Positions 1-39,447 of a DNA stretch of 39,447 nucleotides are shown piece after piece (positions within the stretch are counted from its first letter, which is position 1; each line of letters starts with the position of its first letter). This DNA is from a virus. The notes beneath the pieces were generated by a model. It was given only the letters and a program-made list of their open reading frames with translations. It searched no databases and was not told the origin of the DNA. The stretch lies in the IMG/VR virus record IMGVR_UViG_3300025312_000144, one strand, 5' to 3'. The position numbers and the translations under genes were made by a program.

Positions 1-99
1 GGCTAAATTCTTATTTAATAAACTTAAGTTGTTTTTATCGCCGTCTATAGCTAAAACGCGGTAGCCTAGTTTAGCCGCTATTATCGTATACCAACCTAT
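1..99. repeat. 99-bp copy of the window end (39349..39447); closure overlap of a circular or terminally redundant genome
   Basis: Read base by base: 1..99 equals 39349..39447 with no mismatch. Identity ends exactly at the window edges, and an ORF crosses the junction in frame. Confidence 0.95.
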
Positions 100-342
100 A
101 TGACAGCCTAAATCCCAGAAATAATTATTTTTATCCCCGTCCTCTAGAACTTTCTTTATTATTTCTGTTTCCGGTTTCTCCCAAGCTCCGGTATTTATTA
201 GGGTTCTGGAAACGTCGTCTTTACCGGAACAATAACCGGCGACGTTTTTATATCTTTCGTAGTTGTAGACCCACATAAAGCCTATCGAGGTTTCTATCTT
301 AAAACTATCGTGGTCAGAGTGTCCGGCTTGGCATTGGTTCAT
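1..342 (-). CDS. FkbM-family methyltransferase, N-terminal part (continues at 39348..39025 across the junction)
   Basis: ATG at 342, or an internal ATG at 276. Translation ...NYFWDLGCHIGWYTIIAAKLGYRVLAIDGD (Gly-rich SAM-binding-like motif) runs off base 1. Base 1 ends a codon and 39348 starts the next. Confidence 0.75.
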   Translation of the reverse strand, partial: MNQCQAGHSDHDSFKIETSIGFMWVYNYERYKNVAGYCSGKDDVSRTLINTGAWEKPETEIIKKVLEDGDKNNYFWDLGCHIGWYTIIAAKLGYRVLAIDGDKNNLSLLNKNLA

Positions 343-997
343 AGGCGGTTTTATCAGTTTCTTTTAATAACCTTTTATTTATCTTTTTGGCGGTAATCCA
401 AGTCCACTCCGGATAAATCAAACCGTACTGTTCTTTATCTATAGTTAGGCCGCTTTTATCTAGTAGCCAAGATATATAAGGGTACGGATAGTGGTGGCTA
501 AACGGTTCGTGTTCGTCGCCTTCTATAAACTGGAAAAGGAAAACCCCGTTTTCTGCGAGAACGCGCCCTACTTCCTTAAAATAACTCTCGACCCCTTCCT
601 TATCGATATGCTGGAAAACCGTTACCGAATAGATAAAGTCGAAATAGTTATCCTCCAACGGCAGAGTTCGGCCATCGTTGTCTATCAATTCTAAATTGGG
701 GGGTTTAGAACCGTCTGCGTTTAATAACCTAGCTGTCTCGCCGGCTATTCTTATTAGACGCTCCGATATATCTACCCCGCACCAGTAGGTATCGCGTCTA
801 TATCTAGATAGGGGAATTAACAACCTACCTATACCGCAACCTATCTCTAAGTTTTTTGTAGCGTGAATTGGCGACTCTTTAGCAATTATACTTAATTCTA
901 CTTCTAGAGATATTTCGGGGTCGTGCATTTCTAAAGCTATATTTTTAGACTTAGCTTTATCGTCCCAGTATTTCTTTTCGATATCAACTCTTTTCAT
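314..997 (-). CDS. class I SAM-dependent methyltransferase
   Basis: 227-aa ORF. Motif I LEIGCGIGRLL and a later DFIYSVTVFQHI motif. Overlaps neighbouring genes as in an operon. Confidence 0.8.
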   Translation of the reverse strand: MKRVDIEKKYWDDKAKSKNIALEMHDPEISLEVELSIIAKESPIHATKNLEIGCGIGRLLIPLSRYRRDTYWCGVDISERLIRIAGETARLLNADGSKPPNLELIDNDGRTLPLEDNYFDFIYSVTVFQHIDKEGVESYFKEVGRVLAENGVFLFQFIEGDEHEPFSHHYPYPYISWLLDKSGLTIDKEQYGLIYPEWTWITAKKINKRLLKETDKTAYEPMPSRTL

Positions 998-1730
998 AGA
1001 ATAGGTGTACCTCGTGCTGGTAATCTAACAAGGTTTCTTTATACCCAAACGCTTTAATCCAGTTCCTTAAATCAGTTAGGTATTCTTTATATTGGTGAAA
1101 CATAAATTCGGGGTGGCCGCTTAACCATATTTTTGGTCTATGCTTTTTTATAGTATCACCTGCCCCTTCCAAAACTCGCCACTCGCTACCCTCAACGTCC
1201 AGTATTATTGCTGTAGGATAAGGTATAGTTTCCGCTATCTTATCTATCTTAAACTGCGGCAATCCGTCAGCTTCTTGATATAACTCACTAAACCCGTGGG
1301 CTTTCTCAATCTTTCCTCTAGCATAAATAGGCCACCCGTCTTTATCAGTTACCCAACCCAAACCCTTAAATATATTTTTATCTGGTTTCTTTGGCATTGG
1401 CCTATGTAGATTGCTAGCGAAACCAGCAAAACAACCTAAAGGTTTCTTTAATTTATTAGCTTCCCAAACCGCTTTAATAACCGGCCAAGCCTTGTAGTTT
1501 GGTTCGAATAAAACCACGTGCGCCCCCCACATTTGGCACAACGCCGGCATTTCGCCTAGCTCCGCACCGACATAATAAACTATATCTAGCTTACCGATAT
1601 TCTCGTGCATAGACTCAAGGCGTTTCTTTTCCCAACCCTGCTTGGTGTACCATTCCGGTCTTGCCGCCCTATGTTCGGGAAGTTTTATCTTAAACTTACC
1701 GTTTATTAACGTGTCAACCATTTTTACCAT
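984..1730 (-). CDS. FkbM-family methyltransferase
   Basis: 248-aa ORF with VYYVGAELGEMP...VVLFEPN and AIILDVEGSEWRVLEG, the D-x-EG-x-E signature of the FkbM family. Confidence 0.7.
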   Translation of the reverse strand: MVKMVDTLINGKFKIKLPEHRAARPEWYTKQGWEKKRLESMHENIGKLDIVYYVGAELGEMPALCQMWGAHVVLFEPNYKAWPVIKAVWEANKLKKPLGCFAGFASNLHRPMPKKPDKNIFKGLGWVTDKDGWPIYARGKIEKAHGFSELYQEADGLPQFKIDKIAETIPYPTAIILDVEGSEWRVLEGAGDTIKKHRPKIWLSGHPEFMFHQYKEYLTDLRNWIKAFGYKETLLDYQHEVHLFYEKS

Positions 1731-1733
1731 ATT

Positions 1734-1910
1734 CTACTTTTCACCTTTAGGTATCATAAATCTTTCTATAAAGTCAGAGGACATCCCTATGTGATAACTA
1801 TTGGCTACAACTTGAGTAACTATATTAAATACCAGTTGACGAGTAATTAAACCTTTTTCGTAAAGTAATAAAAGACCTTTAACTAAATCCTCAAACCCTA
1901 ATTCTTTCAT
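1734..1910 (-). CDS. hypothetical small protein (58 aa)
   Basis: Hand-translated MKELGFEDLVKGLLLLYEKG...PKGEK. ATGA overlap with the upstream stop. Its 3' end carries the SD AAAGGTGA for the next gene. Confidence 0.6.
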   Translation of the reverse strand: MKELGFEDLVKGLLLLYEKGLITRQLVFNIVTQVVANSYHIGMSSDFIERFMIPKGEK

Positions 1911-2836
1911 TTATTTATAACCTCCAATATTTTAGCCCACCTTTGTAAATAAGTGTGGTCTCTTTTAGTGCGCTCGTGGCCGGCTATTCTTATTCTTTCG
2001 CGCTCCTCGTCGTGGGTTAGAAAATAATCTATAGACTGCTTTAAGTCATCGAAGTTACCGAAAGTATAAGTAATTAGTTCTTTTTCTAAATCGAAGTAGT
2101 CCTCGATACCTTTTATATAAGGAAAGATAATAAATCCGCCCCTGCCGGTCGTCTCGAATAGTCTATCGGAGAAGTAATAAGGATAATTAAAATTAGGTGA
2201 AAGAGTATCGCCGATAACTATTTTCGTAGAGGCGTAAAGAATGTTCAACTCCCTGCCACGAATAACACCCTTACCATCCCCGCCCCAATGCTCGAACTTA
2301 TCTTTATAAGTTTCTTTTAGCCAGTCTATCAGTTTTGGCCGCCAAGCCCACTCCTCGTGATAACCCCGACTACCTACAAATACAACATCTTTAATAGGGC
2401 TAAAGCCTTCGTATATATAACACTCTTTATCGTAAACTCCGGCCGGCATAAAATATCCTTTTACTTTGGTGTTTTTATTTAGCCAGTCTGCCATTTGAGG
2501 GTCGACCGTAAAGAAATAGTCCAAATCAAAAAGCTCGCTATCTTTGTATTCGTCCCACCTTTTAATACCCATATATAGGTCTAAGTGGTAAGTCAGAGTA
2601 GGTATTTTTCGCCTCTTTAGTTCCCTGATAGCTTCTCTAAGCATATCCGTATGCCACCCGTGGGTATGTACCCAAATAAAAAGGTCGGAACGCTTAGCGC
2701 TATCAACTACCTGCTCCGCACTAGCGCGCTGTTCCGGTAATTTAATTACTTCGTGTCCTAGAGACTCTAAAGATAAAGCGTGGTGGTTCTCGCTACTAAA
2801 AGGCACATCAAAGTTTCCTAAGAAAGTAATTTTCAT
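1907..2836 (-). CDS. glycosyltransferase, CgeB-like (GT-B C-terminal domain)
   Basis: 309 aa. C-terminal FETTGRGGFIIFP...DDLKQSIDYFLTHDEERERIRIAGHERTKRDHTY resembles CgeB / Glyco_trans_1_2 type enzymes. Confidence 0.65.
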   Translation of the reverse strand: MKITFLGNFDVPFSSENHHALSLESLGHEVIKLPEQRASAEQVVDSAKRSDLFIWVHTHGWHTDMLREAIRELKRRKIPTLTYHLDLYMGIKRWDEYKDSELFDLDYFFTVDPQMADWLNKNTKVKGYFMPAGVYDKECYIYEGFSPIKDVVFVGSRGYHEEWAWRPKLIDWLKETYKDKFEHWGGDGKGVIRGRELNILYASTKIVIGDTLSPNFNYPYYFSDRLFETTGRGGFIIFPYIKGIEDYFDLEKELITYTFGNFDDLKQSIDYFLTHDEERERIRIAGHERTKRDHTYLQRWAKILEVINK

Positions 2837-3024
2837 TTAATCTTCTTAATTTTAATACTGCTTTTTTTATCTTTCTGTTCGGCTTTTTGTGCAGTTCTAA
2901 AAGCCGCTACTTTTTTCCAGTAGTTTTCTATCCTCGGCTGTATTTTATCTTTGGTATGGTTACGCATCCGGTGTTTTGACTTCCTAGCGCAACTACAAAC
3001 CAAAAACTCGACATTAGGTTTCAT
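2833..3024 (-). CDS. hypothetical small basic protein
   Basis: 63-aa Lys/Arg-rich ORF with ATGA overlaps on both sides. Confidence 0.55.
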   Translation of the reverse strand: MKPNVEFLVCSCARKSKHRMRNHTKDKIQPRIENYWKKVAAFRTAQKAEQKDKKSSIKIKKIK

Positions 3025-6114: not shown

Positions 6115-6151
6115 AAAATCCTTTCTCTTTTGCATCGCTTCTAATATCGGT

Positions 6152-6350
6152 AGTCTCGAACTGGTACACCGGCTTTACGGTAGACGACGGGCGGGATTTC
6201 TAGGTCTGGGGTTTCGCCTTCCGACCTTCGGTTTACACCTCTTGCTGTCCAGTTACTTGCCAGCTTTCAAACCGCCACGGACTCCTCTGGTTCGAGACTC
6301 CGAAACAGCCCCCCGTAAAAGCGGTTAGCTTAAACCGGACGCAGTTTCGG
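6152..6350 (-). ncRNA. G+C-rich structured RNA candidate (unclassified)
   Basis: Non-coding stretch; 34 of 60 bases are G+C by hand count over 6181..6240. On the minus-strand RNA, helix CCGAAAC(6350..6344)/GTTTCGG(6306..6300) abuts a 10-bp long-range helix AGTCTCGAAC(6299..6290)/GTTCGAGACT(6161..6152). That helix encloses hairpins CGGTTT/AAACCG, AGGTC/GACCT and ACCG/CGGT. Confidence 0.45.
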
Positions 6351-6388
6351 AAATATATTGTTAAGGTGGTTATCTCTCTCCTAACTCC

Positions 6389-6568
6389 CTAGTGGTAGGC
6401 GAAGCGACTATTGCTAATCAACTCCGGCCAAATATCTCTAATCTTTCTAACCGCTACTTGCTCGGCCGCTCCGTAGTTGCGTTTCTCGTAAAGTCTGTTA
6501 ATGACCTCTCTATCCTCCGGAGACGCAACGTCTAGAAATAAGCCTTCTAACATTGACCCCTTTCTCAT
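6389..6568 (-). CDS. hypothetical protein (59 aa)
   Basis: The ATG at 6568 is preceded by GAGGTGAAAGGAAAA. The track ORF starts further upstream at a TTG (6607). Confidence 0.6.
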   Translation of the reverse strand: MRKGSMLEGLFLDVASPEDREVINRLYEKRNYGAAEQVAVRKIRDIWPELISNSRFAYH

Positions 6569-6610
6569 TTTTCCTTTCACCTCACTTTCTACCAAGAATT
6601 GTACCAAGTC

Positions 6611-6805
6611 CTAAACCCTTTGTAAACCCCCCAATTTAGGTTCAATCCTGTTCTTTTGCTTCCGGTAACGCTTATAAATAGCGTACGCGCTAACTCTAAA
6701 TTGGGGCATTTTTGAAATCTCCCTAAAACTATAACCCTCGGCGTCGTGTAAAATTACAATAAGATTTCGTTGCCTTTCGTACCTTCTACTCTTTGCTTCT
6801 ATCAT
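6611..6805 (-). CDS. small helix-turn-helix DNA-binding protein (sigma-70 region-4 / LuxR-like HTH)
   Basis: LHDAEGYSFREISKMPQFRVSAYAIYKRYRKQ fits an HTH. There is no SD, and the ATG at 6805 lies 8 nt after a TATAAT, so the mRNA is possibly leaderless. Confidence 0.6.
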   Translation of the reverse strand: MIEAKSRRYERQRNLIVILHDAEGYSFREISKMPQFRVSAYAIYKRYRKQKNRIEPKLGGLQRV

Positions 6806-6812
6806 CAACTGT

Positions 6813-6841
6813 ATTATATACCCCTTGTCTACCCTAAGCGA
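6813..6841 (-). promoter_or_regulatory. candidate promoter of the HTH gene (possibly leaderless transcript)
   Basis: Minus strand TATAAT at 6818..6813. Weak -35 (TCGCTT), but an upstream A/T tract AAAAAATTTCGAAAAAC is present. The predicted start coincides with the ATG at 6805. Confidence 0.35.
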
Positions 6842-6919
6842 GTTTTTCGAAATTTTTTCGTTTTTGTTTTCTTTTTAAGAATAAAAAAAGGTTAATACTG
6901 TTCTTACAGGTTTTCTTTA

Positions 6920-6932
6920 TTTCCTACCGCTT
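6920..6932. repeat. 13-nt direct repeat TTTCCTACCGCTT, copy 1
   Basis: Identical 13-mer at 6920..6932 and 7073..7085. Both are followed by (A)GAA, and they bracket the plus-strand promoter. Confidence 0.8.
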
Positions 6933-6974
6933 AGAAGGTCTTGAAAGGGGTTGAGTGTTAGAGAAGGGGAAAAC

Positions 6975-7004
6975 TTGACAAACGCCGGTTTTTTCAATTA
7001 TACT
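6975..7004 (+). promoter_or_regulatory. sigma-70-type promoter facing the plus strand
   Basis: TTGACA (6975..6980), an 18-nt spacer, then TATACT (6999..7004). The decamer TTGACAAACG and the spacing are shared with the minus-strand promoter candidate at 30061..30032. Confidence 0.45.
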
Positions 7005-7072
7005 AATAGTATATCTACCTTTTTTAATGAGCTAAAAAGGGATTAGAAAGTTTATTTTTGTTGCAACAATTT

Positions 7073-7085
7073 TTTCCTACCGCTT
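7073..7085. repeat. 13-nt direct repeat TTTCCTACCGCTT, copy 2
   Basis: See copy 1. This copy abuts the terminator hairpin. Confidence 0.8.
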
Positions 7086-7116
7086 GAAACCATCTTAACG
7101 GGTGGTTTCCTTTTTG
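7086..7116 (+). terminator. intrinsic terminator-like hairpin
   Basis: GAAACCA (7086..7092) pairs with TGGTTTC (7103..7109), followed by CTTTTT. Confidence 0.4.
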
Positions 7117-7153
7117 TCTAGTCAGATTATTTAGTATCTCAATAACGAAAAAT

Positions 7154-7169
7154 ATACTATATATAGTAT
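7154..7169. repeat. 16-bp perfect palindrome ATACTATATATAGTAT (possible operator)
   Basis: The sequence equals its own reverse complement. It lies between the structured terminator and the control region. Confidence 0.7.
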
Positions 7170-7178
7170 TAAAAGAAG

Positions 7179-7240
7179 GGGTGAAGGCTAGCATTAAGCT
7201 AGACGAAACCCGCCCCGAAGTTTCGTTGTTACCTTCACCC
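7179..7240 (-). terminator. three-way-junction RNA structure followed by a U-rich tail (terminator-like)
   Basis: On the minus RNA, GGGTGAAGG(7240..7232)/CCTTCACCC(7187..7179) encloses hairpins ACGAAAC/GTTTCGT and CTAGC/GCTAG. It is followed by CTTCTTTT. Confidence 0.45.
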
Positions 7241-7250
7241 AGTAGTTGTC

Positions 7251-7313
7251 TGGCGGGTGAGAAGCCGGCTAAGACGGCGGGGGTGCGGTCTTATAACCTG
7301 CCGACTCTCACCC
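7251..7313 (-). ncRNA. extended hairpin RNA ending in G-CCA (unclassified)
   Basis: On the minus RNA, GGGTGAGA(7313..7306)/TCTCACCC(7262..7255) stacks on GUCGGC/GCCGGC and UAAGAC/GUCUUA. The U-G wobble on the minus RNA is a C-A mismatch on the plus RNA. The 3' side is followed by GCCA. 38 of 60 bases are G+C over 7251..7310. Confidence 0.4.
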
Positions 7314-7322
7314 ATAAGAAAG

Positions 7323-7583
7323 CTACCCCACCGACTCTATTCGGGCGATAGCAGTTTCCAAGCCAATTTCTCCTCCTCTATATTCGGAGACGGTAGCGAT
7401 AACAAAATCTGCGTAAGCTCGCGCCTCCGGATAGGACTCGACCAAATCCCGATAGCAAGCGTAGAGGCCGTTAGCCAGAACACGCTCGCCGACCAGAGAT
7501 TTGTCCACCAAAGGTGTGTCAAGTACGAGTAGGTAGTGGACAGCCACGCAGCATACTCGTCGCAGCAACTCTTGGTAGTCAAT
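7323..7583 (-). CDS. hypothetical protein (about 81-86 aa) in a G+C-rich segment; start codon uncertain (ATT 7583 or TTG 7568)
   Basis: Of three overlapping open frames, only this one has G-rich first and A/T-rich second codon positions. GGGAG lies 9 nt upstream of the ATT at 7583. No in-frame ATG lies near the 5' end. Confidence 0.5.
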   Translation of the reverse strand: MDYQELLRRVCCVAVHYLLVLDTPLVDKSLVGERVLANGLYACYRDLVESYPEARAYADFVIATVSEYRGGEIGLETAIARIESVG

Positions 7584-7589
7584 GACTGC

Positions 7590-7733
7590 TCACTCCCTTC
7601 TATTTTTTAAGTAACTATTTATTAGGTCTCTTATTAAAATTAAGGTATCTATTCGGCGCTTCTCGTCGTTCCAGAAGAACCTTAGATTTTCGATATACTT
7701 ATCTAAAAATACAGTAAAATCGTCATCCTCCAT
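7590..7733 (-). CDS. hypothetical protein (47 aa)
   Basis: Hand-translated MEDDDFTVFLDKYIENLRFFWNDEKRRIDTLILIRDLINSYLKNRRE. Overlaps the upstream gene end by 11 nt. Confidence 0.5.
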   Translation of the reverse strand: MEDDDFTVFLDKYIENLRFFWNDEKRRIDTLILIRDLINSYLKNRRE

Positions 7734-18206: not shown

Positions 18207-18749
18207 CTAGCTTACGTTGGTTATACCAATGTGGCCAAATCTGCGGCCATCTCCGTAAGTTTCGTCTATCAGCGCTTTGAACGTTACCTTAAAAATTCTC
18301 TGATTGTCAACCTCGTAGTTCATCTCTACGCTAGATATAGGAACAGCTTTGTAAATAACGACATCTTCGTTAGTTACAGCGGCCGCGTCGGCTACTGGGT
18401 GAAGAACCAAAATCGCCGCCTTATTAGTCCTAAGACTATAACCGGCAGAGCGACCTAAGTTCACTCTATCGCCTTGCGAACCAGTGCTTAAATCGGAAGC
18501 ACCGATAGCCCGATTGAGGTTTCTTACACTAGGCTCGGCTAACGAAACTTCAATCTCTAGGCTCTCGCCTGTAAGTACCATATCTATCGGAGATGAGCCG
18601 TACTTATCGGCCGTAACGTCTGCGAAGTCAGGCTCGTAAACAAAGTTTACCCCTTCCTTGGTATTACCCAAGTTCACGGAGTTAAACACTATGTTCGAAA
18701 CCCCTATACGCAGGTTACGAATATCTGGCGACGTATAAAAGTCTGCCAT
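18207..18749 (-). CDS. major tail protein
   Basis: 180 aa directly upstream of the chaperone pair, with GGAGG-type SD (GAGGAGGTAAG) upstream. Call is by position and size. Confidence 0.6.
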   Translation of the reverse strand: MADFYTSPDIRNLRIGVSNIVFNSVNLGNTKEGVNFVYEPDFADVTADKYGSSPIDMVLTGESLEIEVSLAEPSVRNLNRAIGASDLSTGSQGDRVNLGRSAGYSLRTNKAAILVLHPVADAAAVTNEDVVIYKAVPISSVEMNYEVDNQRIFKVTFKALIDETYGDGRRFGHIGITNVS

Positions 18750-20636: not shown

Positions 20637-21938
20637 TTAGGATACTGTACCTGTTCCGATTAGCACGAAAGCCTCTGGGAATTGAACCAAGTTGTTAGCT
20701 CGGAACTCCGCCCTAAGAGCTTTAGCGTTCTGCTCGGCTAGGTTGACAGCATTAGCACCAGAGTCGTGAACTGTCGCCTCGGTAAGAGTGGTGAGGTTAA
20801 GTCCGGCTTTCCTAATAAGGGTGCTAAACTTCAAGTTCCCAAAGACAATGAAGGGTTCGTTTTCGTCACCCACTACATTGATATCGGGTAGAACTTCGAC
20901 TAACTCATAAGGATAGCCCCAGATAGTACCGGTGACTCCACCGTTTACCCCAGGTTGCCAAATGTAGTTATCGTTTTGGTCTTTAATTCTTTGAACTAAA
21001 CCAAGCAAGGTTCGGTGAAGGTAGAATTTAGCACCTACTAAAGCTCCTCCGTGAACCGTATAAATTGCTCTGTTTATATCATCGAAGTCAAGGTCGGCAA
21101 GAGCCGCACCTATAGTGACCGCGCCAGTACCGGCGGTACGTAGAATACCGCTAGTTGCGTCGGTAAAGACAAGAGTATCAATCAATCGGGCGCTTTCGAG
21201 GGCGAAGTCTTGGGTCAATTCGCTAAAGATATTGACTGCCGCATCTTCGTTTAGCTCGTCAGTTACGATTGCGATACCTGCAAACTTTCTCAAGTTTACG
21301 GTGTCTTGACCGAACGTCATCTTAGTTCCGGTCTTGGCAACGAGTTCGCCGGTTTCGTACATAGTTACTCCGCCAACTTTCTTGTTAAGAACAAGCGAGT
21401 TGGAACTAATAGTAACCGTTCTAGCGTCCCGCGCGGCTACTCCGTACACATCTTCAAGACGTGCAACTTCTGCGACGAAGTCTCGGTCAACTAGGAAACC
21501 ACCATCGGCGTTAGTAGTTTCGTTCTGATAGCCAGCTTTCTCTATTGCGTACTCGTTAAATCGCTTTAGAGTCGGTTGGTCATCTCGCATAAGAGCCTGA
21601 AGTCCTTTGAAGAACCTCACCTCTTTCGACATCTGTTCGATATCGGTTTTAACTTCTACAGTTGGAGTGTTAGCACCAATGTTTTTACTAACCACTGGCT
21701 CTATCTTCTCAACTGCTTTAGTTACGGCCTCGTCGACCTTTTTGGTAAGAACACCGGCAACTGAATTAGTAATCTTTTCCAAGGCATCCTCGGAAAGAAT
21801 TACCTCGTCGACAGTATCACCATCTTGGTCGTCTTTGGCTTTGGCCTCGGCTTCTAACGTTTCGAGTTCTTTTGCTTCCTCGTCGGTTAGAGTTTCGCCT
21901 TTAGCCTTTTTTTCTTGTAACTCTTTTAGTCTTTCCAT
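20637..21938 (-). CDS. major capsid protein, HK97 fold, with N-terminal scaffold-like delta domain
   Basis: The ATG at 21938 has GGAGG 6 nt upstream; the track start at 21950 is 4 codons earlier. Charged coiled N-terminus, then ...NADGGFLVDRDFVAEV... typical of HK97-family capsids. Confidence 0.8.
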   Translation of the reverse strand: MERLKELQEKKAKGETLTDEEAKELETLEAEAKAKDDQDGDTVDEVILSEDALEKITNSVAGVLTKKVDEAVTKAVEKIEPVVSKNIGANTPTVEVKTDIEQMSKEVRFFKGLQALMRDDQPTLKRFNEYAIEKAGYQNETTNADGGFLVDRDFVAEVARLEDVYGVAARDARTVTISSNSLVLNKKVGGVTMYETGELVAKTGTKMTFGQDTVNLRKFAGIAIVTDELNEDAAVNIFSELTQDFALESARLIDTLVFTDATSGILRTAGTGAVTIGAALADLDFDDINRAIYTVHGGALVGAKFYLHRTLLGLVQRIKDQNDNYIWQPGVNGGVTGTIWGYPYELVEVLPDINVVGDENEPFIVFGNLKFSTLIRKAGLNLTTLTEATVHDSGANAVNLAEQNAKALRAEFRANNLVQFPEAFVLIGTGTVS

Positions 21939-21950
21939 TATTACCTCCAT

Positions 21951-23132: not shown

Positions 23133-23330
23133 TTATTTAGTTTTCAGTACGATTTTATTATATTGACTTCTAGGCTTACTGTCAATAGCGAACGAGTCGC
23201 GCTGGCTAACTATATATAATCGATTGACTGCCTTACAACGGTGGCACTTAATCGAACCGACTGCGGTTGAGAATAATCCTAGCATACCGGCGCAGTTAAA
23301 ACAGCGAACGTCTGGGATATTTCTACTCAT
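23133..23330 (-). CDS. Com-like zinc-ribbon protein
   Basis: VRCFNCAGMLGLFSTAVGSIKCHRCKAVN fits the Mu Com pattern RC..C..L.......i.C.RCK..N. Confidence 0.5.
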   Translation of the reverse strand: MSRNIPDVRCFNCAGMLGLFSTAVGSIKCHRCKAVNRLYIVSQRDSFAIDSKPRSQYNKIVLKTK

Positions 23331-34133: not shown

Positions 34134-34208
34134 TGGAGCGTCAGGGTCGGTATCGCACCGCCTTCTCTAGCTTGGAAAGCCAGCGTCTTACTTTTAGACG
34201 ACTGACGC
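34134..34208 (-). tRNA. tRNA-Gly(UCC)-like gene with encoded CCA and non-canonical D and T loops
   Basis: Hand fold of the minus strand. Acceptor GCGTCAG/CTGACGC (7 bp) and U8. D stem GUCU/AGAC with loop AAAAGUA. Anticodon stem CUGGC/GCUAG (one G-U) with loop UU-UCC-AA. T arm GGCGG-UGCGAUA-CCGAC (one G-A mismatch, one extra C). Discriminator U, then CCA. Confidence 0.5.
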
Positions 34209-34849: not shown

Positions 34850-35297
34850 CGAATTTGTCTAATAAAGCCTCGTTACCGGTAGGCGAGAAATTATCTAGTA
34901 ATTCTTGTAAGTTTACCGCTTTACTTAAATCAACTTTATAATCTTCTAGGTTTATTTTAACGCCGTTAATTAACTCGGCTAAGTCTGTATCGATATAATA
35001 TCCGGCGCGGTCGTTATCGCTAATAGCTATTTCTATTTTTTCTTCTTCGGTTTTTACGTTTACTATACTAACCCAAACATCCTCAATCCCTAAATCCTGT
35101 AAAATTCTTAGACGCATATTTCCGCCTAAGACTTCGCCGTCCGGAGTTATAACTAAAGGTTTATAAAGATACTCGCCGGTTATTTCTTTAATCCTTGTAA
35201 ATTGTCTTTTTAGCCGCTCGAAGTCGTCTTTAGTTATCGCTCTAGGGTTCTTGTCCCAATTCCTTAATTTAGATATATGCCAGATAGTTTTTTCCAT
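34800..35297 (-). CDS. ParB N-terminal (ParB/Srx-like) domain protein with C-terminal zinc ribbon
   Basis: WDKNPRAITKDDFERLKRQF...PLVITPDGEVLGGNMRLRIL matches the ParB-like nuclease domain core. The C-terminus is ECPECGAKF. Confidence 0.65.
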   Translation of the reverse strand: MEKTIWHISKLRNWDKNPRAITKDDFERLKRQFTRIKEITGEYLYKPLVITPDGEVLGGNMRLRILQDLGIEDVWVSIVNVKTEEEKIEIAISDNDRAGYYIDTDLAELINGVKINLEDYKVDLSKAVNLQELLDNFSPTGNEALLDKFDAKEVECPECGAKFTP

Positions 35298-35545
35298 CAG
35301 CTTATTTTAGAGTTTCCTTTATCCGGTAGCTTATCGGTAACCATTATATTTCCGTATTCTATCTCGCCTTTTATTAAGTCTACTTTTTCGACTTTATTCT
35401 TTAACATACCGACCCTCTGGCGTTCGACCATTAGGATAACGTCCCAGTCTATATTTATTCGGTTTACCGCCCGTTCGTGGAACTCTTTGTCGTGCTGTAG
35501 GTCTAGCATCGTTTGTAGGTTTCTCTTTTCGATTGAAAATTTCAT
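35297..35545 (-). CDS. hypothetical protein (82 aa)
   Basis: Track ORF, translationally coupled on both sides. Confidence 0.55.
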   Translation of the reverse strand: MKFSIEKRNLQTMLDLQHDKEFHERAVNRINIDWDVILMVERQRVGMLKNKVEKVDLIKGEIEYGNIMVTDKLPDKGNSKIS

Positions 35546-36351
35546 TTTATATGGTAAGGCTGTAATTGCCAGCCGTTTTTATCTTTTTTCCAGACTACGC
35601 TTACTATTTTACCATCTACCAGTAAATCTTGCTTCGGGGTTATATGTATAGTTTTAATTGTCCAATTAACGTAGGCTTTATAACCTTCTTTTAGAACGTC
35701 CATAACGTAGCAAACGTCTGGGCCGAAGCACTCCGCGAAGAACCGATATTTTATATTCTGATATAAATAGGCTAGGGTTAGATAACAATAGAAACCGCCG
35801 CCTGTAATAGGTTCTAGACTCTCATATTTAGGCGGCTCTAAAGTCTTTTGTATAGTCGGGTTTCTTAAATCGTCTACTTTCCAAACTCCGGCCATTTTAA
35901 TTCCGTGCCTACCAACCTGTACCCCTTCTATATAGCCGACATTGTAATCTAGTTGGAAGTCGTCGTACATCTTACGAAAGGCGTTCGGAGGAACTAAAGT
36001 ATCATCCTCGATACCGAAAACGTAGCTACCCTTAATATCTTTTTTACTTCGTTCTTTCATTTCGATTATCCGGTTGCGTTGTATCGAAATCCTAGTATTA
36101 GTCGGGGCAGGATTTCCGCTAATTAAGATTTTAGAGCCGTTAAATTTATCTTTCCGTTCTTCTAAGAAGGCGGTCGTCCTATTGATTATATTCTGATTAT
36201 CAGTATCTATATAAAAATAAACTTCCGTGCCGAGCCAAGGCATTTCTAAGTTATCTAAACTAGGTAAAAACCTATCTAGCGCCCACTCTCTAGTTAGCGG
36301 TACGAAAACGGTTACAAGCGGCTTTTCCGACGGTTTTATTACTTTAAGCAT
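35542..36351 (-). CDS. glycosyltransferase, GT-A fold (family 2-like)
   Basis: N-terminal VTVFVPLTREWALDRFLPSL and a DxD-like GIEDDTLVPPNAF. Confidence 0.6.
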   Translation of the reverse strand: MLKVIKPSEKPLVTVFVPLTREWALDRFLPSLDNLEMPWLGTEVYFYIDTDNQNIINRTTAFLEERKDKFNGSKILISGNPAPTNTRISIQRNRIIEMKERSKKDIKGSYVFGIEDDTLVPPNAFRKMYDDFQLDYNVGYIEGVQVGRHGIKMAGVWKVDDLRNPTIQKTLEPPKYESLEPITGGGFYCYLTLAYLYQNIKYRFFAECFGPDVCYVMDVLKEGYKAYVNWTIKTIHITPKQDLLVDGKIVSVVWKKDKNGWQLQPYHIK

Positions 36352-37388
36352 TGTTCGAAAGTATCTAGGTAAACTTGCCTCATTTTATTCCAAGAAAGTC
36401 TTTCGGCTATTTCGTTAGATTTTTCGCTTAATCTTTCGACTAACTTATCGTCGCTCGCTAATTGGTCTATCTTATCCGCTAATACTTGAGGTTTAGTCTG
36501 GTGGCTTGGCATATGCATCCTAGTAAAAAGCATTTTTCTACTATCAGTATTTATTAAGGACTCGGCCTCTAGTATCTCGTTCTGGGGCGGTAAGTTAGTC
36601 ATTATCGGTACTAGGCCGCGAGATAAGCTCTCTTGTAGCTGTAAGGATAAGCCGCCGTATTTTCTAGGTAGAAGTAGACAATCATACTCTCCGACGTAAT
36701 TTTCCCAATAGTTCTCTACTTCTCGGTCGTCTATTCTAGTATTAAAAGGGCTAGGGTTTTCTATATAAAACTGCGACTTAATAATAAACTCGACGTTTTT
36801 ACTTTTAACTAGAGGTATAGCTTCCAGAACTATATCCGTTCCGTTCCGATTATCCTCAGTCTTATGGCCGGCGATATGTAAAAATCTTCTAGCTTTAGTC
36901 TTTTTGGTAAAAGTTAGAACTTCTCTATTTATAGGTACGGGTAATTCGATAATCTTTACTTTATCGCTAAAGTTATTTCTAACATCGTCTAAATTCCAAT
37001 TAGTCGGCGCGGCTAGTACGTCTGGGAAAGCCCAGTCCGGCCTAACGAAATAATCTAGAAATTCGTAATTAAATTGGTTAATAGAGATGACACCTTTTTC
37101 TTTGGCTAGGGAAAATAATCTGTAAGAATAAGGAGACTCGATAGTAAATACTAAATCTATATCGGTTAGAAGCCAATTAAAATCTACTTCGTTAGGGAAG
37201 CCGTGTACAAACTTTACATTATCGCCGGTATACCATCGAGGATAGGTTTTAGCAATCTTACCTTTAGACTGATTAACCGCCGTTATATCTACAACTAAAG
37301 TTTTATCAGGTTTAATATGGTCGTAAAACTCTTTTGTTTGTACCCCAAGTCCCGTACTATCGCAACGGGCTACTAGACCAATTCTCAT
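36339..37388 (-). CDS. glycosyltransferase, GT-B fold (group 1 / GT4-like)
   Basis: C-terminal GGLSLQLQESLSRGLVPIMTN resembles the E-x7-E region of GT4 enzymes. Confidence 0.6.
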   Translation of the reverse strand: MRIGLVARCDSTGLGVQTKEFYDHIKPDKTLVVDITAVNQSKGKIAKTYPRWYTGDNVKFVHGFPNEVDFNWLLTDIDLVFTIESPYSYRLFSLAKEKGVISINQFNYEFLDYFVRPDWAFPDVLAAPTNWNLDDVRNNFSDKVKIIELPVPINREVLTFTKKTKARRFLHIAGHKTEDNRNGTDIVLEAIPLVKSKNVEFIIKSQFYIENPSPFNTRIDDREVENYWENYVGEYDCLLLPRKYGGLSLQLQESLSRGLVPIMTNLPPQNEILEAESLINTDSRKMLFTRMHMPSHQTKPQVLADKIDQLASDDKLVERLSEKSNEIAERLSWNKMRQVYLDTFEQCLK

Positions 37389-39028
37389 AAGTTTTTATAC
37401 ATCGGCTCACCGGCTCTCCCGTCTAAGTGGTAGCTTCTTTTCATATCTCCGCTCGGAGCGTAAACCATTATTTTCCAATCATTCCAGCCGGCCTTGCCCC
37501 TGTCCTTATAATCGCTAATTACTCTACCGTGAACCTTATCCTCTATAAAAGACTTCTCCTCCGGATTAAAATACTTATCTAGCGTTTTTATATAAAATTC
37601 GGTAGAGGCGAGGTGCGGTCGTTGCGACCACTGCGCCGTTCTAATTATGGGAACGTCGTTAATAGTTATCGGTTGCTCGTCTAGCATCAAATGCTTATGG
37701 TCGGGTAGTATAAGAGCCTCGTGGTGAAATCTAATTAAATTAGCGTCGCCCTCTAGAATAGTTTTCTGTAATGCCTCCCAAGGTATATATTCGCAGAGCG
37801 GCGTGTCGTGTTCTACAAAAAGAATAAGCGGAGTTTTAACATCTCTTAATACTTTTCTAGTCATACCGGACTGGTGGTTAAACTCGTCGAACATTACCGG
37901 AGTAACTTTTTTCCACTCGAAATTAGTTTTCCAAAGTATTCGTCTAATATACTCCTGATAATCATTATTACTCTCCTTTTGCTCCTCACGCACGCCGTCA
38001 ATCATTAAAATTATTTCCGAACCTGGCAGTTTATCTCTTACGCTTAAAATAGTTTCTTCTATAATCGAAGTATCGGGGTTAGACTTTATAGGCGAAGTTG
38101 GTATTAAAACTGTAATAAGGCCGTAATCCATTTTAGTTTTCGATAGATAACTAATATCTTCTTTTATATTATATTCTAGTTTCTTTTTATATTGTTGCCA
38201 CCAAGAGAAAACTCGATTATTAACGTTAGGATACCTGTCGTAATAGTTTACAAATACCCCTTTTAGCTTTTTCCAGTCCGTTAGAATAGGGAAAGGTAAA
38301 TCAGAAGAAGCAGAGTTAGTAAAAAGGTAACGCCAATAATTAGTAGCTTTCGCATTTTTAGGTATTTTATCATCTACGATAGGAACGCATCCAGCCTCTA
38401 AGGCTTCGTAGAAACGAAAGGTATCAGGAGTTTCCGGCCCAGAGGGGCAAATAGCTATCTTCGTTCTAGATAATAACTCGTAATAGTCTTTTCTACTTAA
38501 ACCCTCGGTAAACCTTTCAGTTTCGTTTAAGAACCCTTTATACTGCTCGTCCTCTAATAAAGCGTGCATAAACTTAGCGGCTAGTTTTCTTCGTTTATGA
38601 GTTATCTGTCCAGAAAAAGCCCAATCGTAGTCTTTCACTCCGTCGTTTTTGCCTATAAGTTCTCTAGCGTCCGGAGGCCAGCCATCGCCTAAATACCTGT
38701 CTGCTATTTTAGGTTTATGAAAGTCTGGGGTCATTTGATAAACTAATAAACGTTTGTGTTTTAGCTTATCTATCGGAAATACGTTTTCTTCGTCTCCGGC
38801 TAAAATAATTAAAACCCAATCTAGGTTTTTTATATCCTCGTTTATTTCGTCTACCTTATCAGAGTGGGAACGGGCAGGGATAATAACTATCGCTCCGCCG
38901 CTTTCGACCATTTTATCTTCGTGCCAGAACTCCTCGCCGGAGAATATATACTCTAAAAGACCCTCGTCCCAGTAACCCCGATTAGGAGTATCTTCTTTAT
39001 AGCTTTTCCAAACTACCGGTATTCTCAT
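37385..39028 (-). CDS. two-domain glycosyltransferase (exostosin-like N-domain plus GT-A C-domain)
   Basis: The N-half IAICPSGPETPDTFRFYEALEAGCVPIV is exostosin/GT47-like. The C-half LITVLIPTSP...ILMIDGV...LFVEHDTP is GT-A-like with a DxD-type motif. Confidence 0.6.
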   Translation of the reverse strand: MRIPVVWKSYKEDTPNRGYWDEGLLEYIFSGEEFWHEDKMVESGGAIVIIPARSHSDKVDEINEDIKNLDWVLIILAGDEENVFPIDKLKHKRLLVYQMTPDFHKPKIADRYLGDGWPPDARELIGKNDGVKDYDWAFSGQITHKRRKLAAKFMHALLEDEQYKGFLNETERFTEGLSRKDYYELLSRTKIAICPSGPETPDTFRFYEALEAGCVPIVDDKIPKNAKATNYWRYLFTNSASSDLPFPILTDWKKLKGVFVNYYDRYPNVNNRVFSWWQQYKKKLEYNIKEDISYLSKTKMDYGLITVLIPTSPIKSNPDTSIIEETILSVRDKLPGSEIILMIDGVREEQKESNNDYQEYIRRILWKTNFEWKKVTPVMFDEFNHQSGMTRKVLRDVKTPLILFVEHDTPLCEYIPWEALQKTILEGDANLIRFHHEALILPDHKHLMLDEQPITINDVPIIRTAQWSQRPHLASTEFYIKTLDKYFNPEEKSFIEDKVHGRVISDYKDRGKAGWNDWKIMVYAPSGDMKRSYHLDGRAGEPMYKNL

Positions 39029-39447
39029 AATCTAAATAATATATTAGCCTGATTAAAGTTCATATCGCCATTAAAAGGAGCGCCGTCTATAAAAGCCTTA
39101 TAGCCGACCTTAGTTAATTTATTATAGATTTCGGGATAACTATTATTAAAGACGGGGCTAAATTCTATAAATAAGTTATTAACTCTTTTAGCTAAAATTA
39201 AATCCCAAAGTTTCTCGATTGCGTAAACTTCGTTACCTTCTATATCAATTTTTACTAACTCTATATTACCGATTGCTAAACCGTAGTAGGGAGATTTAGC
39301 GTTAATCCATTCGTTTTTTACAGTAACCTTAGATGCTATAAGGTTCTCGGCTAAATTCTTATTTAATAAACTTAAGTTGTTTTTATCGCCGTCTATAGCT
39401 AAAACGCGGTAGCCTAGTTTAGCCGCTATTATCGTATACCAACCTAT
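39025..39447 (-). CDS. FkbM-family methyltransferase, C-terminal part (N-terminus at 342..1 across the junction)
   Basis: Hand-translated ...ENLIASKVTVKNEWINAKSPYYGLAIGNIELVKIDIEGNEVYAIEKLW...NILFRL. Its TGA overlaps the next ATG (ATGA). Bases 39349..39447 duplicate 1..99. Confidence 0.75.
   Translation of the reverse strand: MGWYTIIAAKLGYRVLAIDGDKNNLSLLNKNLAENLIASKVTVKNEWINAKSPYYGLAIGNIELVKIDIEGNEVYAIEKLWDLILAKRVNNLFIEFSPVFNNSYPEIYNKLTKVGYKAFIDGAPFNGDMNFNQANILFRL
39349..39447. repeat. 99-bp copy of the window start (1..99)
   Basis: See feature 1..99. Confidence 0.95.

Follow-up and report, generated by a model that had tools for sequence, protein, structure and literature searches.

Phage-encoded glycosyltransferases glycosylate capsid and tail-tube proteins (PMC11600133, PMC12363180), and in the mycobacteriophages Che8 and Corndog the proteins of the capsid and the tail tube are O-glycosylated (Freeman et al. 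2023, as cited in PMC11600133 and PMC12363180). A second viral system is that of the chlorovirus PBCV-1, where the protein A064R (glycosyltransferase-glycosyltransferase-methyltransferase) and the methyltransferase A061L build the capsid glycan. This glycan is made in the cytoplasm, independently of the host, and its terminal sugar is methylated stepwise by two SAM methyltransferases (PMC9614988). In bacteria, O-antigen systems of the WbdA/WbdD type combine a bifunctional glycosyltransferase with a terminating methyltransferase, the two being sometimes fused (PMC7820976).

The window analysed here is the whole of IMG/VR record IMGVR_UViG_3300025312_000144 (39,447 nucleotides). It is a circular phage genome with a 99-bp terminal overlap and 39,348 bp of unique sequence, the last 99 bases repeating the first 99 across the junction that the first-pass annotation had assumed. 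Its minus strand carries a single string of eight overlapping genes in the order GT309, p58, FkbM248, MT227, FkbM221, GT547, GT349 and p269 (Table 1), which encode five glycosyltransferase domains and three sugar-type methyltransferases. The three consecutive genes for SAM-dependent methyltransferases that had been reported are thus present. ATGA overlaps can be read from the sequence at p63/GT309, GT309/p58 and FkbM221/GT547; by coordinates, GT547/GT349 and p269/p82 overlap by 4 bp, FkbM248/MT227 by 14 bp, MT227/FkbM221 by 29 bp and GT349/p269 by 13 bp. The earlier description of the methyltransferases as joined to GT309 by such overlaps needs a correction, as the 58-aa ORF p58 intervenes and is separated from FkbM248 by a 3-bp gap. 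Similarly, GT309, FkbM248 and MT227 lie within positions 1–2836, to which the genes had been assigned, but FkbM221 is read from 342 to 1 and then from 39348 to 39025. The p58 ORF has no family match in Pfam or PHROGs and no homologue in 80 related loci, where its slot is taken by other, unrelated small ORFs; p82 likewise has no homologue in related loci. The module ORFs are real genes and not chance ORFs, judging from the core proteins, each of which has hundreds to thousands of homologues and tens of invariant residues.

Table 1. Features of the glycosyltransferase-methyltransferase module in the window.
Feature	Description	Coordinates	Strand	Basis
GT309	CgeB-like (PF13524) GT-B glycosyltransferase, first core gene	1907..2836	-	profile and model
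p58	58-aa small ORF, ATGA-coupled to GT309	1734..1910	-	ORF and junction from sequence
FkbM248	FkbM-family SAM-dependent methyltransferase, core gene	984..1730	-	PF05050
MT227	class-I SAM methyltransferase, accessory gene	314..997	-	Methyltransf_25/11
FkbM221, N-terminal 114 codons	second FkbM-family methyltransferase, spans circular junction	1..342	-	ORF rebuilt without 99-bp duplicate
FkbM221, C-terminal 107 codons and stop	holds IDIEGNE motif	39025..39348	-	ATGA overlap with GT547 at end
GT547	two-domain glycosyltransferase, 547 aa, core gene	37385..39028	-	PF24785 and AF2/Foldseek
GT349	GT-B, GT1/GT4-like glycosyltransferase, 349 aa, core gene	36339..37388	-	sub-cut-off Pfam and PHROG
p269	probable GT2-like GT-A glycosyltransferase, 269 aa, accessory gene	35542..36351	-	weak GT2 matches of family members
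p82	small ORF, closes gene string before ParB-like gene	35297..35545	-	overlaps p269 by 4 bp
Terminal repeat	99-bp duplicate of window 1–99	39349..39447	.	exact terminal direct repeat, assembly overlap of circular contig

The identification of GT309 as a CgeB-like GT-B enzyme is borne out by its matches to PF13524 Glyco_trans_1_2 (1.6e-23, 83.7 bits; cut-off 25) and to phrog_28745 'glycosyltransferase' (8.7e-34). The AF2 model is a confident two-Rossmann GT-B fold (pLDDT 92.1, pTM 0.89), and its structure matches in the PDB are GT4-type transferases; the best is 7qsg (ManT, E 5.9e-10), ahead of dozens of generic GT4 enzymes by no more than one to two orders of magnitude in E-value. The block S223-D224-R225-x-x-E228 is invariant among homologues at 33–78% identity, so that the loss of catalytic residues, which would have spoken against the assignment, is not seen. 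GT309 looks like a functional enzyme.

Two of the methyltransferases carry the D-x-E-G-x-E signature of the FkbM family, as had been noted: LDVEGSE in FkbM248 and IDIEGNE in FkbM221. Both exceed the PF05050 cut-off of 22.7 bits (FkbM248, 3.5e-10, 40.7 bits; FkbM221, 5.3e-7, 30.4 bits), and against TIGR01444 (cut-off 37.7) FkbM221 scores 39.7 and FkbM248, slightly below, 37.3. The FkbM248 profile matches PDB 2py6 'Methyltransferase FkbM' (1.4e-6) across the DxEGxE block, and residues D178, E180, G181 and S182 are among 74 invariant columns in an alignment of 14 sequences. MT227 matches Methyltransf_25/11/12/23/31 (1e-17 to 1e-10) and sits among generic small-molecule class-I methyltransferases (BioC, UbiE, CMAS and ArsM-like). 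Its top NCBIfam matches are small-molecule O/C-methyltransferases, every one far under cut-off, and nucleic-acid names occur only among weaker matches (an unspecific PHROG 'tRNA methyltransferase', 5.4e-11; TrmB and Hen1 in NCBIfam, far sub-threshold). A DNA or RNA methyltransferase identity was rejected for all three proteins, as Pfam, NCBIfam and PHROGs place them in the FkbM (two) and small-molecule class-I (one) families, in agreement with the sugar-type reading of the first-pass annotation.

Past the junction, three more glycosyltransferase genes had been proposed, and the evidence for them is graded. GT547 is the firmest: it comprises an N-terminal GT47/RXYLT1-like GT-B domain (~residues 1–295) and a C-terminal GT-A domain (~residues 300–547), scores over cut-off against PF24785 (5.4e-12) and under cut-off against PF03016 (2.7e-7, 30.6 bits; cut-off 33.4), and gives a confident AF2 model (pLDDT 93.0, pTM 0.92). 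The FRFYEALEAGCVPI block and E406-H-D408 are conserved. The best whole-chain matches in the PDB (Foldseek) are the exostosins, heparan-sulfate co-polymerases of the GT47 + GT64 type, with human EXT1/EXT2/EXTL3 taking the top six places (1.7e-11 to 7.6e-10) before GT-A enzymes follow. The domain order is the same, a GT47-like GT-B domain and then a GT-A domain, and GT547 has the exostosin-type GT47 motif R-x-x-E-A-L-E-A-G-C-x-P. However, sequence identity is ~10% and the whole-chain TM-score only ~0.3, because the domain orientations differ, and the C-terminal domain is no closer to GT64 than to generic GT-A enzymes (GalNAc-T2, SpsA, TarS). Unlike in exostosins, the two halves are separate genes in many phages, and most low-GC loci have the split where the two domains meet. 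GT547, a putative polymerase, may also be likened to the bacterial two-domain polymerases PmHS2 and K4CP.

GT349 is a weaker GT1/GT4-type match, with PF00534 (1.4e-5) and PF13692 (3.5e-4) both under their cut-offs and phrog_2170 'glycosyltransferase' at 1.6e-7. Its family profile finds 7qsg best in the PDB (0.004), then GlgA and Gtf1; R242, G246 and E253 are invariant, and the gene is found in 77/80 loci. For p269 itself there are no Pfam, PHROG or NCBIfam matches, and it can be called a glycosyltransferase only through its family, three of whose eight members weakly match the GT2 models PF13641/PF00535 (best 1.7e-4). The family keeps D49 and a DXD-like E115-D116-D117 invariant. Homologues follow GT349 in the related loci L001-3, L091 and L092 (tblastn), and proteins in the p269 position of L104-L107 align with the family; p269 is a probable GT2-like GT-A glycosyltransferase.

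The same operon was sought in related phage contigs. The core GT309 - FkbM248 - GT547 - GT349 is strictly syntenic in ~77 of 80 IMG/VR loci (30–62% GC), and the order recurs in two 65%-GC Nocardia phage-like contigs and in a 236-kb jumbo phage. FkbM248 is present in all 80 loci; MT227 has a homologue at the same position in 13/80 loci and in L092, and FkbM221 in L001-3, L089, L091 and L092 (37–61% identity). The module had been called uncommon. This holds for cultured phages, as tblastn of the core against 50,697 GenBank phage records gave no match, but not for metagenomic ones, where it is carried by 101 IMG/VR contigs and GT309 and GT547 have 2,526 and 1,383 homologues, the latter without a functional name on any. 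By these searches, the module is widespread among metagenomic phages, with the order of its four core genes kept in over a hundred uncultured phages, absent from sequenced cultured phages, and uncharacterised.

Genes found in and near the module in relatives point to a sugar pathway. An NAD epimerase/dehydratase of NDP-sugar type lies within it in 37 of 83 ORF-clustered loci and in L105, a SAM synthetase stands directly upstream in L092, and a carbamoyltransferase, GT2, GT25, a PF11397 GlcNAc transferase and a Stealth-like protein occur nearby. Natural fusions in other proteins join a GT309-like (PF13524) domain to FkbM, FkbM to a GT47-like domain, and FkbM to a class-I methyltransferase, as in P0298, where an FkbM248-like domain is fused with a class-I domain of MT227 type. 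At the level of sequence, these fusions tie methylation to glycan assembly and, together with the overlapping or abutting genes and the kept core order, argue for one pathway. The earlier proposal that the phage itself makes a methylated glycan is supported by this gene content, namely the strict synteny, the fusions and the relatives' epimerase and SAM synthetase genes.

Compared with the systems described above, the module appears analogous and not homologous to those of mycobacteriophages and chloroviruses (the latter compared by description). In Corndog, a methyltransferase and several tandem glycosyltransferases (gp35-38) also stand beside head-morphogenesis genes, and are soluble and use host precursors; the corresponding virion role is here a prediction. 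The Corndog genes, one for a methyltransferase and three for glycosyltransferases, have the major capsid gene a few hundred bases downstream and, on their upstream side, gp34, whose product is weakly similar to the portal protein of the window. However, blastp of gp35-38 against all window proteins gave chance-level matches only, and the Corndog enzymes are small (194–289 aa) and single-domain, unlike the FkbM-type methyltransferases, CgeB-like GT-B and exostosin-like two-domain enzyme of the window. PBCV-1 offers the glycosyltransferase-methyltransferase fusion in one protein, to which the fusions among module homologues are similar, but it is a eukaryotic giant virus with N-linked glycans, the transferase domains that it encodes are of other families, and its methyltransferases are described as class-I, not FkbM.

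The WbdA/WbdD likeness, a multi-domain transferase paired or fused with a SAM methyltransferase acting at the non-reducing end, implies no homology and leads to a different reading. Here, the enzymes would work at the inner membrane face and alter or methyl-cap lipid-linked host glycans (O-antigen, capsule, teichoic-acid or arabinogalactan-type intermediates) that a host flippase or ABC transporter exports, e.g., for a superinfection block or changed receptor display. LPS, CPS and teichoic-acid pathways use these same enzyme families, surface-polysaccharide loci typically have accessory genes such as those of the relatives (Stealth-like, GT25 'LPS', epimerase/dehydratase, carbamoyltransferase), the WbdA/WbdD pathway is itself an envelope pathway (PMC7820976), and this is the usual interpretation of cyanophage glycosyltransferase clusters (PMC12801897). 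However, WbdA/WbdD require Wzm/Wzt export and an undecaprenyl-linked primer, neither of which the window encodes. No flippase, ABC-transporter or initiating phosphoglycosyltransferase family was found among the scanned window ORFs (Pfam/PHROGs), and all module proteins are soluble, with no membrane segment and no hydrophobic 19-mer above 1.14 (Kyte-Doolittle), which argues for a cytoplasmic product that the phage does not export itself. The window phage (40% GC) and the Nocardia elements share 48–52% identity in GT309 and FkbM248 and 34–45% in GT547 and GT349, and the module is also carried by 30–35%-GC phages; the acceptor is thus probably not host-specific, and the four enzymes are kept at 34–52% across hosts whose envelope intermediates differ. 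No integrase or repressor was seen in the window, making lysogenic conversion unlikely, and no terminator-like site on the operon's strand separates it from the packaging genes that follow. Envelope remodelling is, on balance, unlikely.

Soluble proteins without an exporter would also suit a product that stays in the cytoplasm or a host target: a free polymethylated polysaccharide modelled on the mycobacterial methylmannose/methylglucose polysaccharides, a glycosylated conserved host protein or metabolite serving as a take-over or anti-defence device, or a drain on nucleotide-sugars. In the PDB, the structure search with GT309 and the sequence search with the GT349 family both rank 7qsg first, the mannosyltransferase of the methylmannose-polysaccharide pathway. 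Nocardia elements, among them that of Nocardia asiatica NBRC 100129, carry the module, and a universal target would be in keeping with its conservation in unrelated hosts. The lead of 7qsg over generic GT4 enzymes is, however, slight. Polymethylated polysaccharides are not known outside a few actinobacterial genera, whereas most module carriers are 30–42%-GC phages. For a host target, no candidate can be named, and five domains for glycan synthesis are a large outlay for the inactivation of one host protein. These variants together are doubtful, much as envelope remodelling is.

The module's neighbours raise the question of DNA hypermodification, in which a methylated glycan on phage DNA bases would evade restriction, as in T-even phages and 5hmC/5hmU sugar clusters. 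The window has a Mom-family protein (PF25680, 1.1e-43) and a ParB-like protein nearby, L107 a 7-deazaguanine cluster (QueC/D/E/F, FolE) with ParB_N directly upstream, and L089 and L105 DNA methyltransferase genes. Published metagenomic DNA-sugar clusters likewise combine GT-A and GT-B enzymes, including LPS/teichoic-type transferases and sometimes epimerases or secondary transferases, near ParB-like and terminase genes; FkbM and O-methyl are unmentioned there (bioRxiv 10.1101/2023.12.21.572611). However, their defining 5mYOX/TET (TET/JBP dioxygenase) or ThyS-like hydroxymethylase, with or without a C5 DNA methyltransferase, was not found among the scanned window ORFs (Pfam or PHROGs), nor was any other hydroxymethyl-pyrimidine enzyme, so that the defining hydroxyl acceptor of every known DNA glycosylation is missing. 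The jumbo-phage carrier's ThyX and dCMP deaminase are canonical dTMP supply, known DNA adducts (the largest reported is a trisaccharide) are far smaller than the glycan expected from four to five transferase domains with a possible polymerase, no methylated DNA-linked sugars are known, and such neighbour genes are common anyway at the early/late boundary of phage genomes. Glycosylation of DNA is therefore very improbable.

We favour, with a probability of roughly 40%, a cytoplasmic and self-contained assembly line whose product, an O-methylated oligo- or polysaccharide, is probably attached to virion proteins. Directly downstream of the module lie terminase, portal or capsid genes in the window and in L001-3, L006, L081, L092, L105, L106 and L107, a placement beside head genes that is parallel to Corndog and suggests a virion acceptor. 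Against this stand the large-genome lineages (L089, L091, L104 and the 30–35%-GC loci), in which the module sits amid replication, tRNA-repair or unknown genes, the frequent DNA-modification neighbours and the missing sequence similarity to the Corndog cassette. Moreover, the S/T-rich repeat proteins of the window phage, which are attractive acceptors, were not seen to co-occur with the module elsewhere. The capsids of module-bearing phages are HK97-type (PF05065-like) in the window and L092/L106 and Phage_capsid_4/P22-like in the Nocardia locus L081; as virion proteins are non-homologous among carriers, a conserved protein acceptor would need a short tag or loosely recognised Ser/Thr.

In the scheme that we infer for this assembly line, host nucleotide-sugars and SAM would be the precursors, and GT309 or the GT4-like GT349 would start or prime the chain. 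The exostosin-like GT547 would then use its GT47-like and GT-A domains to form two different linkages, perhaps alternating as a co-polymerase, and p269 would add a further residue. FkbM248 would O-methylate a sugar hydroxyl, as a decoration or a WbdD-style chain cap, and in the window phage MT227 and FkbM221 would supply extra methyl groups. The acceptor, the most conjectural element, would most likely be at least one of the phage's own virion proteins, giving the particle a glycan coat as in the mycobacteriophages Che8 and Corndog and in chloroviruses.

The phage very probably encodes the synthesis of an O-methylated glycan, and the probability of this reading is put at about 80%. A methylated glycan made by the phage itself had been proposed in the first-pass annotation, and protein families, synteny and gene fusions argue for it. 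Judged by profile and fold, the proteins of the operon comprise three methyltransferases and a total of five probable glycosyltransferase domains. All convincing genes of the window are on the minus strand. The window ends in an exact 99-bp direct repeat (1-99 = 39349-39447) and, because the terminal 99 bases duplicate the initial 99, the genome is circular and complete at 39,348 unique bases. Genes that span the junction escape linear ORF callers.

Operon genes, terminase-portal block and other features. Enzyme names give the type (GT, glycosyltransferase; FkbM and MT, methyltransferase; p, other ORF) and length in amino acids. The genes from p63 to portal are listed in the direction of transcription and are all on the minus strand; L numbers are related loci.
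Feature	Position	Strand	Remark
p63	2833-3024	-	small ORF
GT309	1907-2836	-	
p58	1734-1910	-	small ORF
FkbM248	984-1730	-	
MT227	314-997	-	
FkbM221	342->1, then 39348->39025	-	spans circular junction
GT547	37385-39028	-	
GT349	36339-37388	-	
p269	35542-36351	-	
p82	35297-35545	-	small ORF
ParB-like	34800-35297	-	phrog_620 and phrog_498
Mom-family	34208-34849	-	PF25680 1.1e-43; phrog_1384 2.6e-51
small terminase	33736-34098	-	assignment by position
large terminase	32517-33800	-	
portal	30432-32489	-	
Mom-family/ParB-like pair	34208-35297	-	
tRNA	34138-34208	-	
p1082 and p554	23323-28235	-	
region of ~1.4 kb	6135-7590		
sigma-70-like site	6975-7004	+	TTGACA-18-TATACT
terminator-like hairpin	7086-7109	+	10-bp stem
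SAM synthetase / HNH, NUMOD3, Fic	L092 5639-6625; L091 11713-12348; L105 11047-11673; L092 11700-12437		
QueD, QueE, QueC, FolE, QueF and ParB_N	L107 1163-5743		

The genes of the operon are tightly joined. ATGA overlaps are present at p63/GT309, GT309/p58 and FkbM221/GT547, coordinates place 4-bp overlaps at GT547/GT349 and p269/p82, and the remaining junctions of the string are overlaps of 13-29 bp or, once, a 3-bp gap. Promoter and terminator scans, which are weak evidence with counts no higher than chance level, found no terminator-like site interrupting the string on the coding strand. The coupled operon of FkbM-like methyltransferases and a CgeB-like glycosyltransferase seen at first pass is borne out, with corrected coordinates. 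Elsewhere, neither strand of a ~1.4-kb region has a convincing ORF. The region includes its best sigma-70-like site and a terminator-like hairpin and may have a role in regulation or as an origin.

The CgeB-like enzyme, GT309, matches PF13524 (Glyco_trans_1_2, CgeB family) at 1.6e-23 and 83.7 bits against a cut-off of 25, and a PHROG annotated as 'glycosyltransferase' at 8.7e-34. Its AlphaFold (AF2) model, built from a 36-sequence alignment (pLDDT 92.1, pTM 0.89), has a two-Rossmann GT-B fold, for which the Foldseek matches are of GT4 type and reach a query-normalised TM-score of 0.72. The PDB neighbours are ManT (7qsg), MshA, BshA, PimA, PglA, SdgB, GtfC and Gtf3, the last three of which are protein-O-glycosylating enzymes. 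Residues S223, D224, R225, E228 and R232, as well as H84, D86, R93 and R166, are invariant both in an alignment of 17 sequences (33-64% identity) and in one of 36 sequences (56-78% identity), and their conservation suggests that they are donor-binding or catalytic. Profile score, fold and the invariant S223-D224-R225-x-x-E228 together confirm the CgeB-like assignment. PDB searches by sequence alone were of no use for GT547, GT309 or the p269 family. The product could be a free methylated polysaccharide, or the target could lie in the host cytoplasm. ManT, from the methylmannose-polysaccharide pathway, tops the structure matches of GT309 and the profile matches of the GT349 family in the PDB, but it barely outscores generic GT4 enzymes there, and this explanation is doubtful.

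Further glycosyltransferases had been proposed across the circular junction, and this holds best for GT547. This protein matches PF24785 (RXYLT1_C) at 5.4e-12 and 45.9 bits, above the cut-off of 27, and in its AF2 model (45 sequences, pLDDT 93.0, pTM 0.92) a GT-B domain at the N-terminus is followed by a GT-A domain at the C-terminus. This two-domain layout is shared with the exostosins, although the match to PF03016 (Exostosin_GT47), at 30.6 bits, is below the cut-off of 33.4. Human EXT1, EXT2 and EXTL3, which are GT47 + GT64 enzymes, account for the top six PDB matches, aligned over >600 columns. Next come generic GT-A enzymes and the two-domain polymerases PmHS2 and K4CP; for the C-terminal domain, a GT64 candidate, the generic GT-A enzymes (GalNAc-T2, B4GALNT1, SpsA and TarS) score similarly. 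Conserved blocks are FRFYEALEAGCVPI, of GT47 type, and the DXD-like E-H-D. The remaining two assignments are looser: GT349 has a weak GT1/GT4 match, and p269, itself without a match, is tied to GT2 only through its family, in which three of eight members have weak matches to GT2 models and the E-D-D block is invariant.

Both FkbM248 and FkbM221 score above the PF05050 cut-off of 22.7 bits, at 40.7 and 30.4 bits, respectively. Against TIGR01444 (cut-off 37.7), FkbM221 is above at 39.7 bits and FkbM248 marginally under at 37.3. The D-x-E-G-x-E block reads LDVEGSE in FkbM248 and IDIEGNE in FkbM221; the former is invariant in 14 homologues and aligns with MDIEGSE of PDB 2py6 ('Methyltransferase FkbM'), which is the only PDB match of the FkbM248 family profile. 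N-terminal Gly-rich SAM motifs, YVGAELGE and DLGCHIGW, can be read from the sequence. MT227 is a generic class-I SAM methyltransferase whose nearest NCBIfam models are small-molecule O/C-methyltransferases, all far under their cut-offs. PF05050 scores, the D-x-E-G-x-E block and class-I profiles thus uphold two FkbM enzymes and a third SAM methyltransferase, and profile searches, which could have placed them among DNA or RNA methyltransferases, found no such family at a meaningful score for FkbM248, FkbM221 or MT227.

Gene fusions link these enzymes to glycosyltransferases. Rosetta-stone homologues join a PF13524 glycosyltransferase to FkbM (P0259), FkbM to a GT47-like domain (P0284) and FkbM to a class-I methyltransferase (P0298). 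The surroundings of the core vary among relatives. Of the 83 ORF-clustered loci, 37 have an NAD-dependent sugar epimerase/dehydratase gene between GT309 and FkbM248, and in L105 such a gene follows FkbM; MT227-like genes are present in 13 loci, and a SAM synthetase is directly upstream of the module in L092. GT2, GT25, PF11397 GlcNAc-transferase, Stealth-like and carbamoyltransferase genes are found nearby. In most low-GC loci GT547 is encoded by two genes with the break at the domain boundary, and the lineage in which GT547 is fused also has FkbM221 and p269. Some copies have HNH, NUMOD3 or Fic genes inserted between module genes. Taken together, synteny, accessory genes and fusions make the methyltransferases part of the glycan pathway, and the synteny and fusions with glycosyltransferases suggest that the FkbM enzyme(s) O-methylate a sugar or another hydroxyl.

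The core, GT309-FkbM248-GT547-GT349, recurs in related phage contigs with its order kept. An IMG/VR scan with FkbM248 gave 101 contigs, 80 of which were kept for comparison. In tblastn against these, GT309 was found in 74, FkbM248 in all 80, GT547 in 79 and GT349 in 77; gene order and strand were identical throughout, the misses being loci cut at contig ends. The loci range from 30% to 62% GC and, besides three close relatives, L001-3, do not share the other tested window proteins, including terminase, portal and capsid. A single-protein scan of the genome collection gave no match, and an alignment-based scan of bacterial genomes found all four core genes in actinobacterial MAGs and in two Nocardia contigs of 65% GC, with identities of 34-52%. 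In the Nocardia asiatica contig NZ_BAFS01000460.1 a phage capsid gene is 5 kb downstream of the module, and this strain (NBRC 100129) is a possible culturable entry point. In a jumbo phage the module lies in a 236-kb contig amid ThyX, dCMP deaminase, DnaB and Pol III genes. Homologues number 1,383 for GT547 and 2,526 for GT309, few with even a generic name, and the FkbM248 family has 682 clusters at 50% identity. Among 50,697 GenBank phage records there was no match to FkbM248 or GT547 by tblastn, or to the region by blastn, and the large terminase found distant partial matches only. A portal-based search for module-negative relatives found only distant ones, without the module nearby.

The glycan would be assembled in the cytoplasm from host nucleotide-sugars. 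Here, GT547 would add two linkage types, its exostosin-like architecture allowing it to act as a co-polymerase, and the FkbM enzyme would O-methylate a sugar as a decoration or chain cap. WbdA/WbdD provides a bacterial precedent for a transferase and a methyltransferase that are sometimes fused (PMC7820976). The module proteins are soluble, with a highest Kyte-Doolittle 19-mer of 1.14. Serotype-converting and surface-glycan modules (Gtr, Wzx/Wzy, ABC) differ in having a membrane transferase, a flippase or transporter, and lysogeny; among the scanned window ORFs there is neither a phosphoglycosyltransferase, flippase or ABC transporter nor an integrase or repressor. Remodelling of the host envelope by the module is improbable, as it has no membrane or export component and the phage no sign of lysogeny. 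Because the module is kept across hosts with unrelated envelopes, the acceptor should be phage-borne or universal.

In eight lineages (window, L001-3, L006, L081, L092, L105, L106, L107) the module is directly upstream of terminase, portal or capsid genes. Such a tandem of methyltransferase and glycosyltransferases beside head genes is also seen in the mycobacteriophages Corndog and Che8, and in Corndog a few hundred bases separate gp35-38, a methyltransferase and three glycosyltransferases, from the major capsid gene downstream of them. The Corndog enzymes are reported to glycosylate capsid and tail-tube proteins (PMC11600133, PMC12363180). The chlorovirus PBCV-1 encodes a transferase and methyltransferase system with stepwise methylation that acts on the capsid glycan (PMC9614988). 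Homology to the Corndog cassette was rejected, as blastp of gp35-38 against all window proteins gave no meaningful alignment: gp36-38 had E > 1 against module enzymes, and the lowest values were short and at chance level (gp35/GT309, 0.004 over 33 residues; gp36/prohead protease, 0.008). Because of the adjacency to head genes and the Corndog and PBCV-1 precedents, glycosylation of virion proteins is favoured, tentatively and at somewhat less than even odds. Two cautions are that capsid families differ among module carriers and that large-genome lineages have the module away from head genes.

Alternatively, the glycan could be placed on phage DNA as a hypermodification, since DNA-modification genes often adjoin the module and published DNA-sugar clusters have similar neighbourhoods (bioRxiv 10.1101/2023.12.21.572611). 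DNA methyltransferases are present in L089 and L105. In L107, a 37-kb phage-like contig of a Polynucleobacter sp. MAG (CBFHUQ010000015.1), a 7-deazaguanine cluster with ParB_N is directly upstream of a reduced module without GT547 (GT313, FkbM, GT349-like and GT2-like), which is followed by terminase and portal genes. In the window, a Mom-family and a ParB-like gene are the only DNA-modification genes among the scanned ORFs. They overlap by 50 bp and directly separate the glycan operon from the terminase genes, and this pair makes adenine modification of the phage's own DNA probable as well. Pfam and PHROGs found no TET/JBP (5mYOX) dioxygenase, ThyS-like hydroxymethylase or C5 DNA methyltransferase among the scanned window ORFs, and the implied glycan size also speaks against a DNA target, which is very unlikely.

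If virion proteins are the target, two large proteins encoded between the portal and the prohead protease, p1082 and p554, are possible acceptors in the window phage. Each has ~20-30 tandem copies of a 14-residue S/T-rich unit, (I/V)TKSL(K/T)Y-V(L/I)T(D/E), and p1082 has in addition a ConA-like lectin domain (PF13385, 6.1e-7); a role as head fibres or decoration proteins is possible. In the DNA the repeats have drifted apart, and Tandem Repeats Finder finds none there. Protein-pattern scans for relatives found nothing, and a degenerate DNA-pattern scan found related repeat-protein loci beside head genes in >30 IMG/VR contigs; no glycan module was seen at these loci, which were short as recovered. 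The window's capsid protein is encoded at 20637-21950 and its tail tube at 18207-18749. The capsid C-terminal 'IGTGTVS' was set aside as a glycosylation tag: it is common to the L092 homologue, but this may mirror capsid homology only. The 685-aa portal has a C-terminal extension (~residues 430-685) that matches minor head/head-morphogenesis PHROGs, and the same fusion, annotated Phage_portal + Phage_Mu_F, is present in L092, L105, L106 and L107. A tRNA in the gap between the Mom-family and small-terminase genes scores 31.6 bits in Rfam (gathering score 29), and its anticodon loop, UUUCCAA, suggests tRNA-Gly(UCC); ARAGORN found no tRNA in the window.

To our knowledge, glycan synthesis by tailed phages has been shown experimentally in few cases, namely the glucosylation of T-even DNA, serotype conversion and, in some mycobacteriophages, capsid glycosylation. 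Viruses that encode the synthesis of a methylated glycan are already known, and the cassette here is not homologous to the characterised ones. It is distinctive in being absent from ~50,000 deposited phage genomes, yet conserved gene for gene in >100 metagenomic phages of 30-65% GC, and in containing an exostosin-like two-domain transferase in a cassette that is widespread only in uncultured phages. A bolder and unlikely reading is that the core (GT309-FkbM-GT47/GT-A-GT4) is a horizontally mobile 'virion glycocalyx' kit, so far unrecognised, of very different tailed phages (Nocardia, jumbo and low-GC, probably aquatic), in which the exostosin-like enzyme would polymerise a two-sugar repeat and FkbM would methyl-cap it, so that capsids or tails would gain a coat of a defined methylated polysaccharide. 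A GT47 + GT-A co-polymerase that makes protein-linked polysaccharide has, as far as we know, been a hallmark of animal heparan-sulfate synthesis; were this reading true, bacteriophages would have such an enzyme too. Should the target be DNA or the host envelope instead, the module would represent new chemistry for either. If virions are decorated, glycan coats may be a common, overlooked trait of environmental phages, with a bearing on adsorption, stability, grazing, immune recognition and the design of therapeutic phages.
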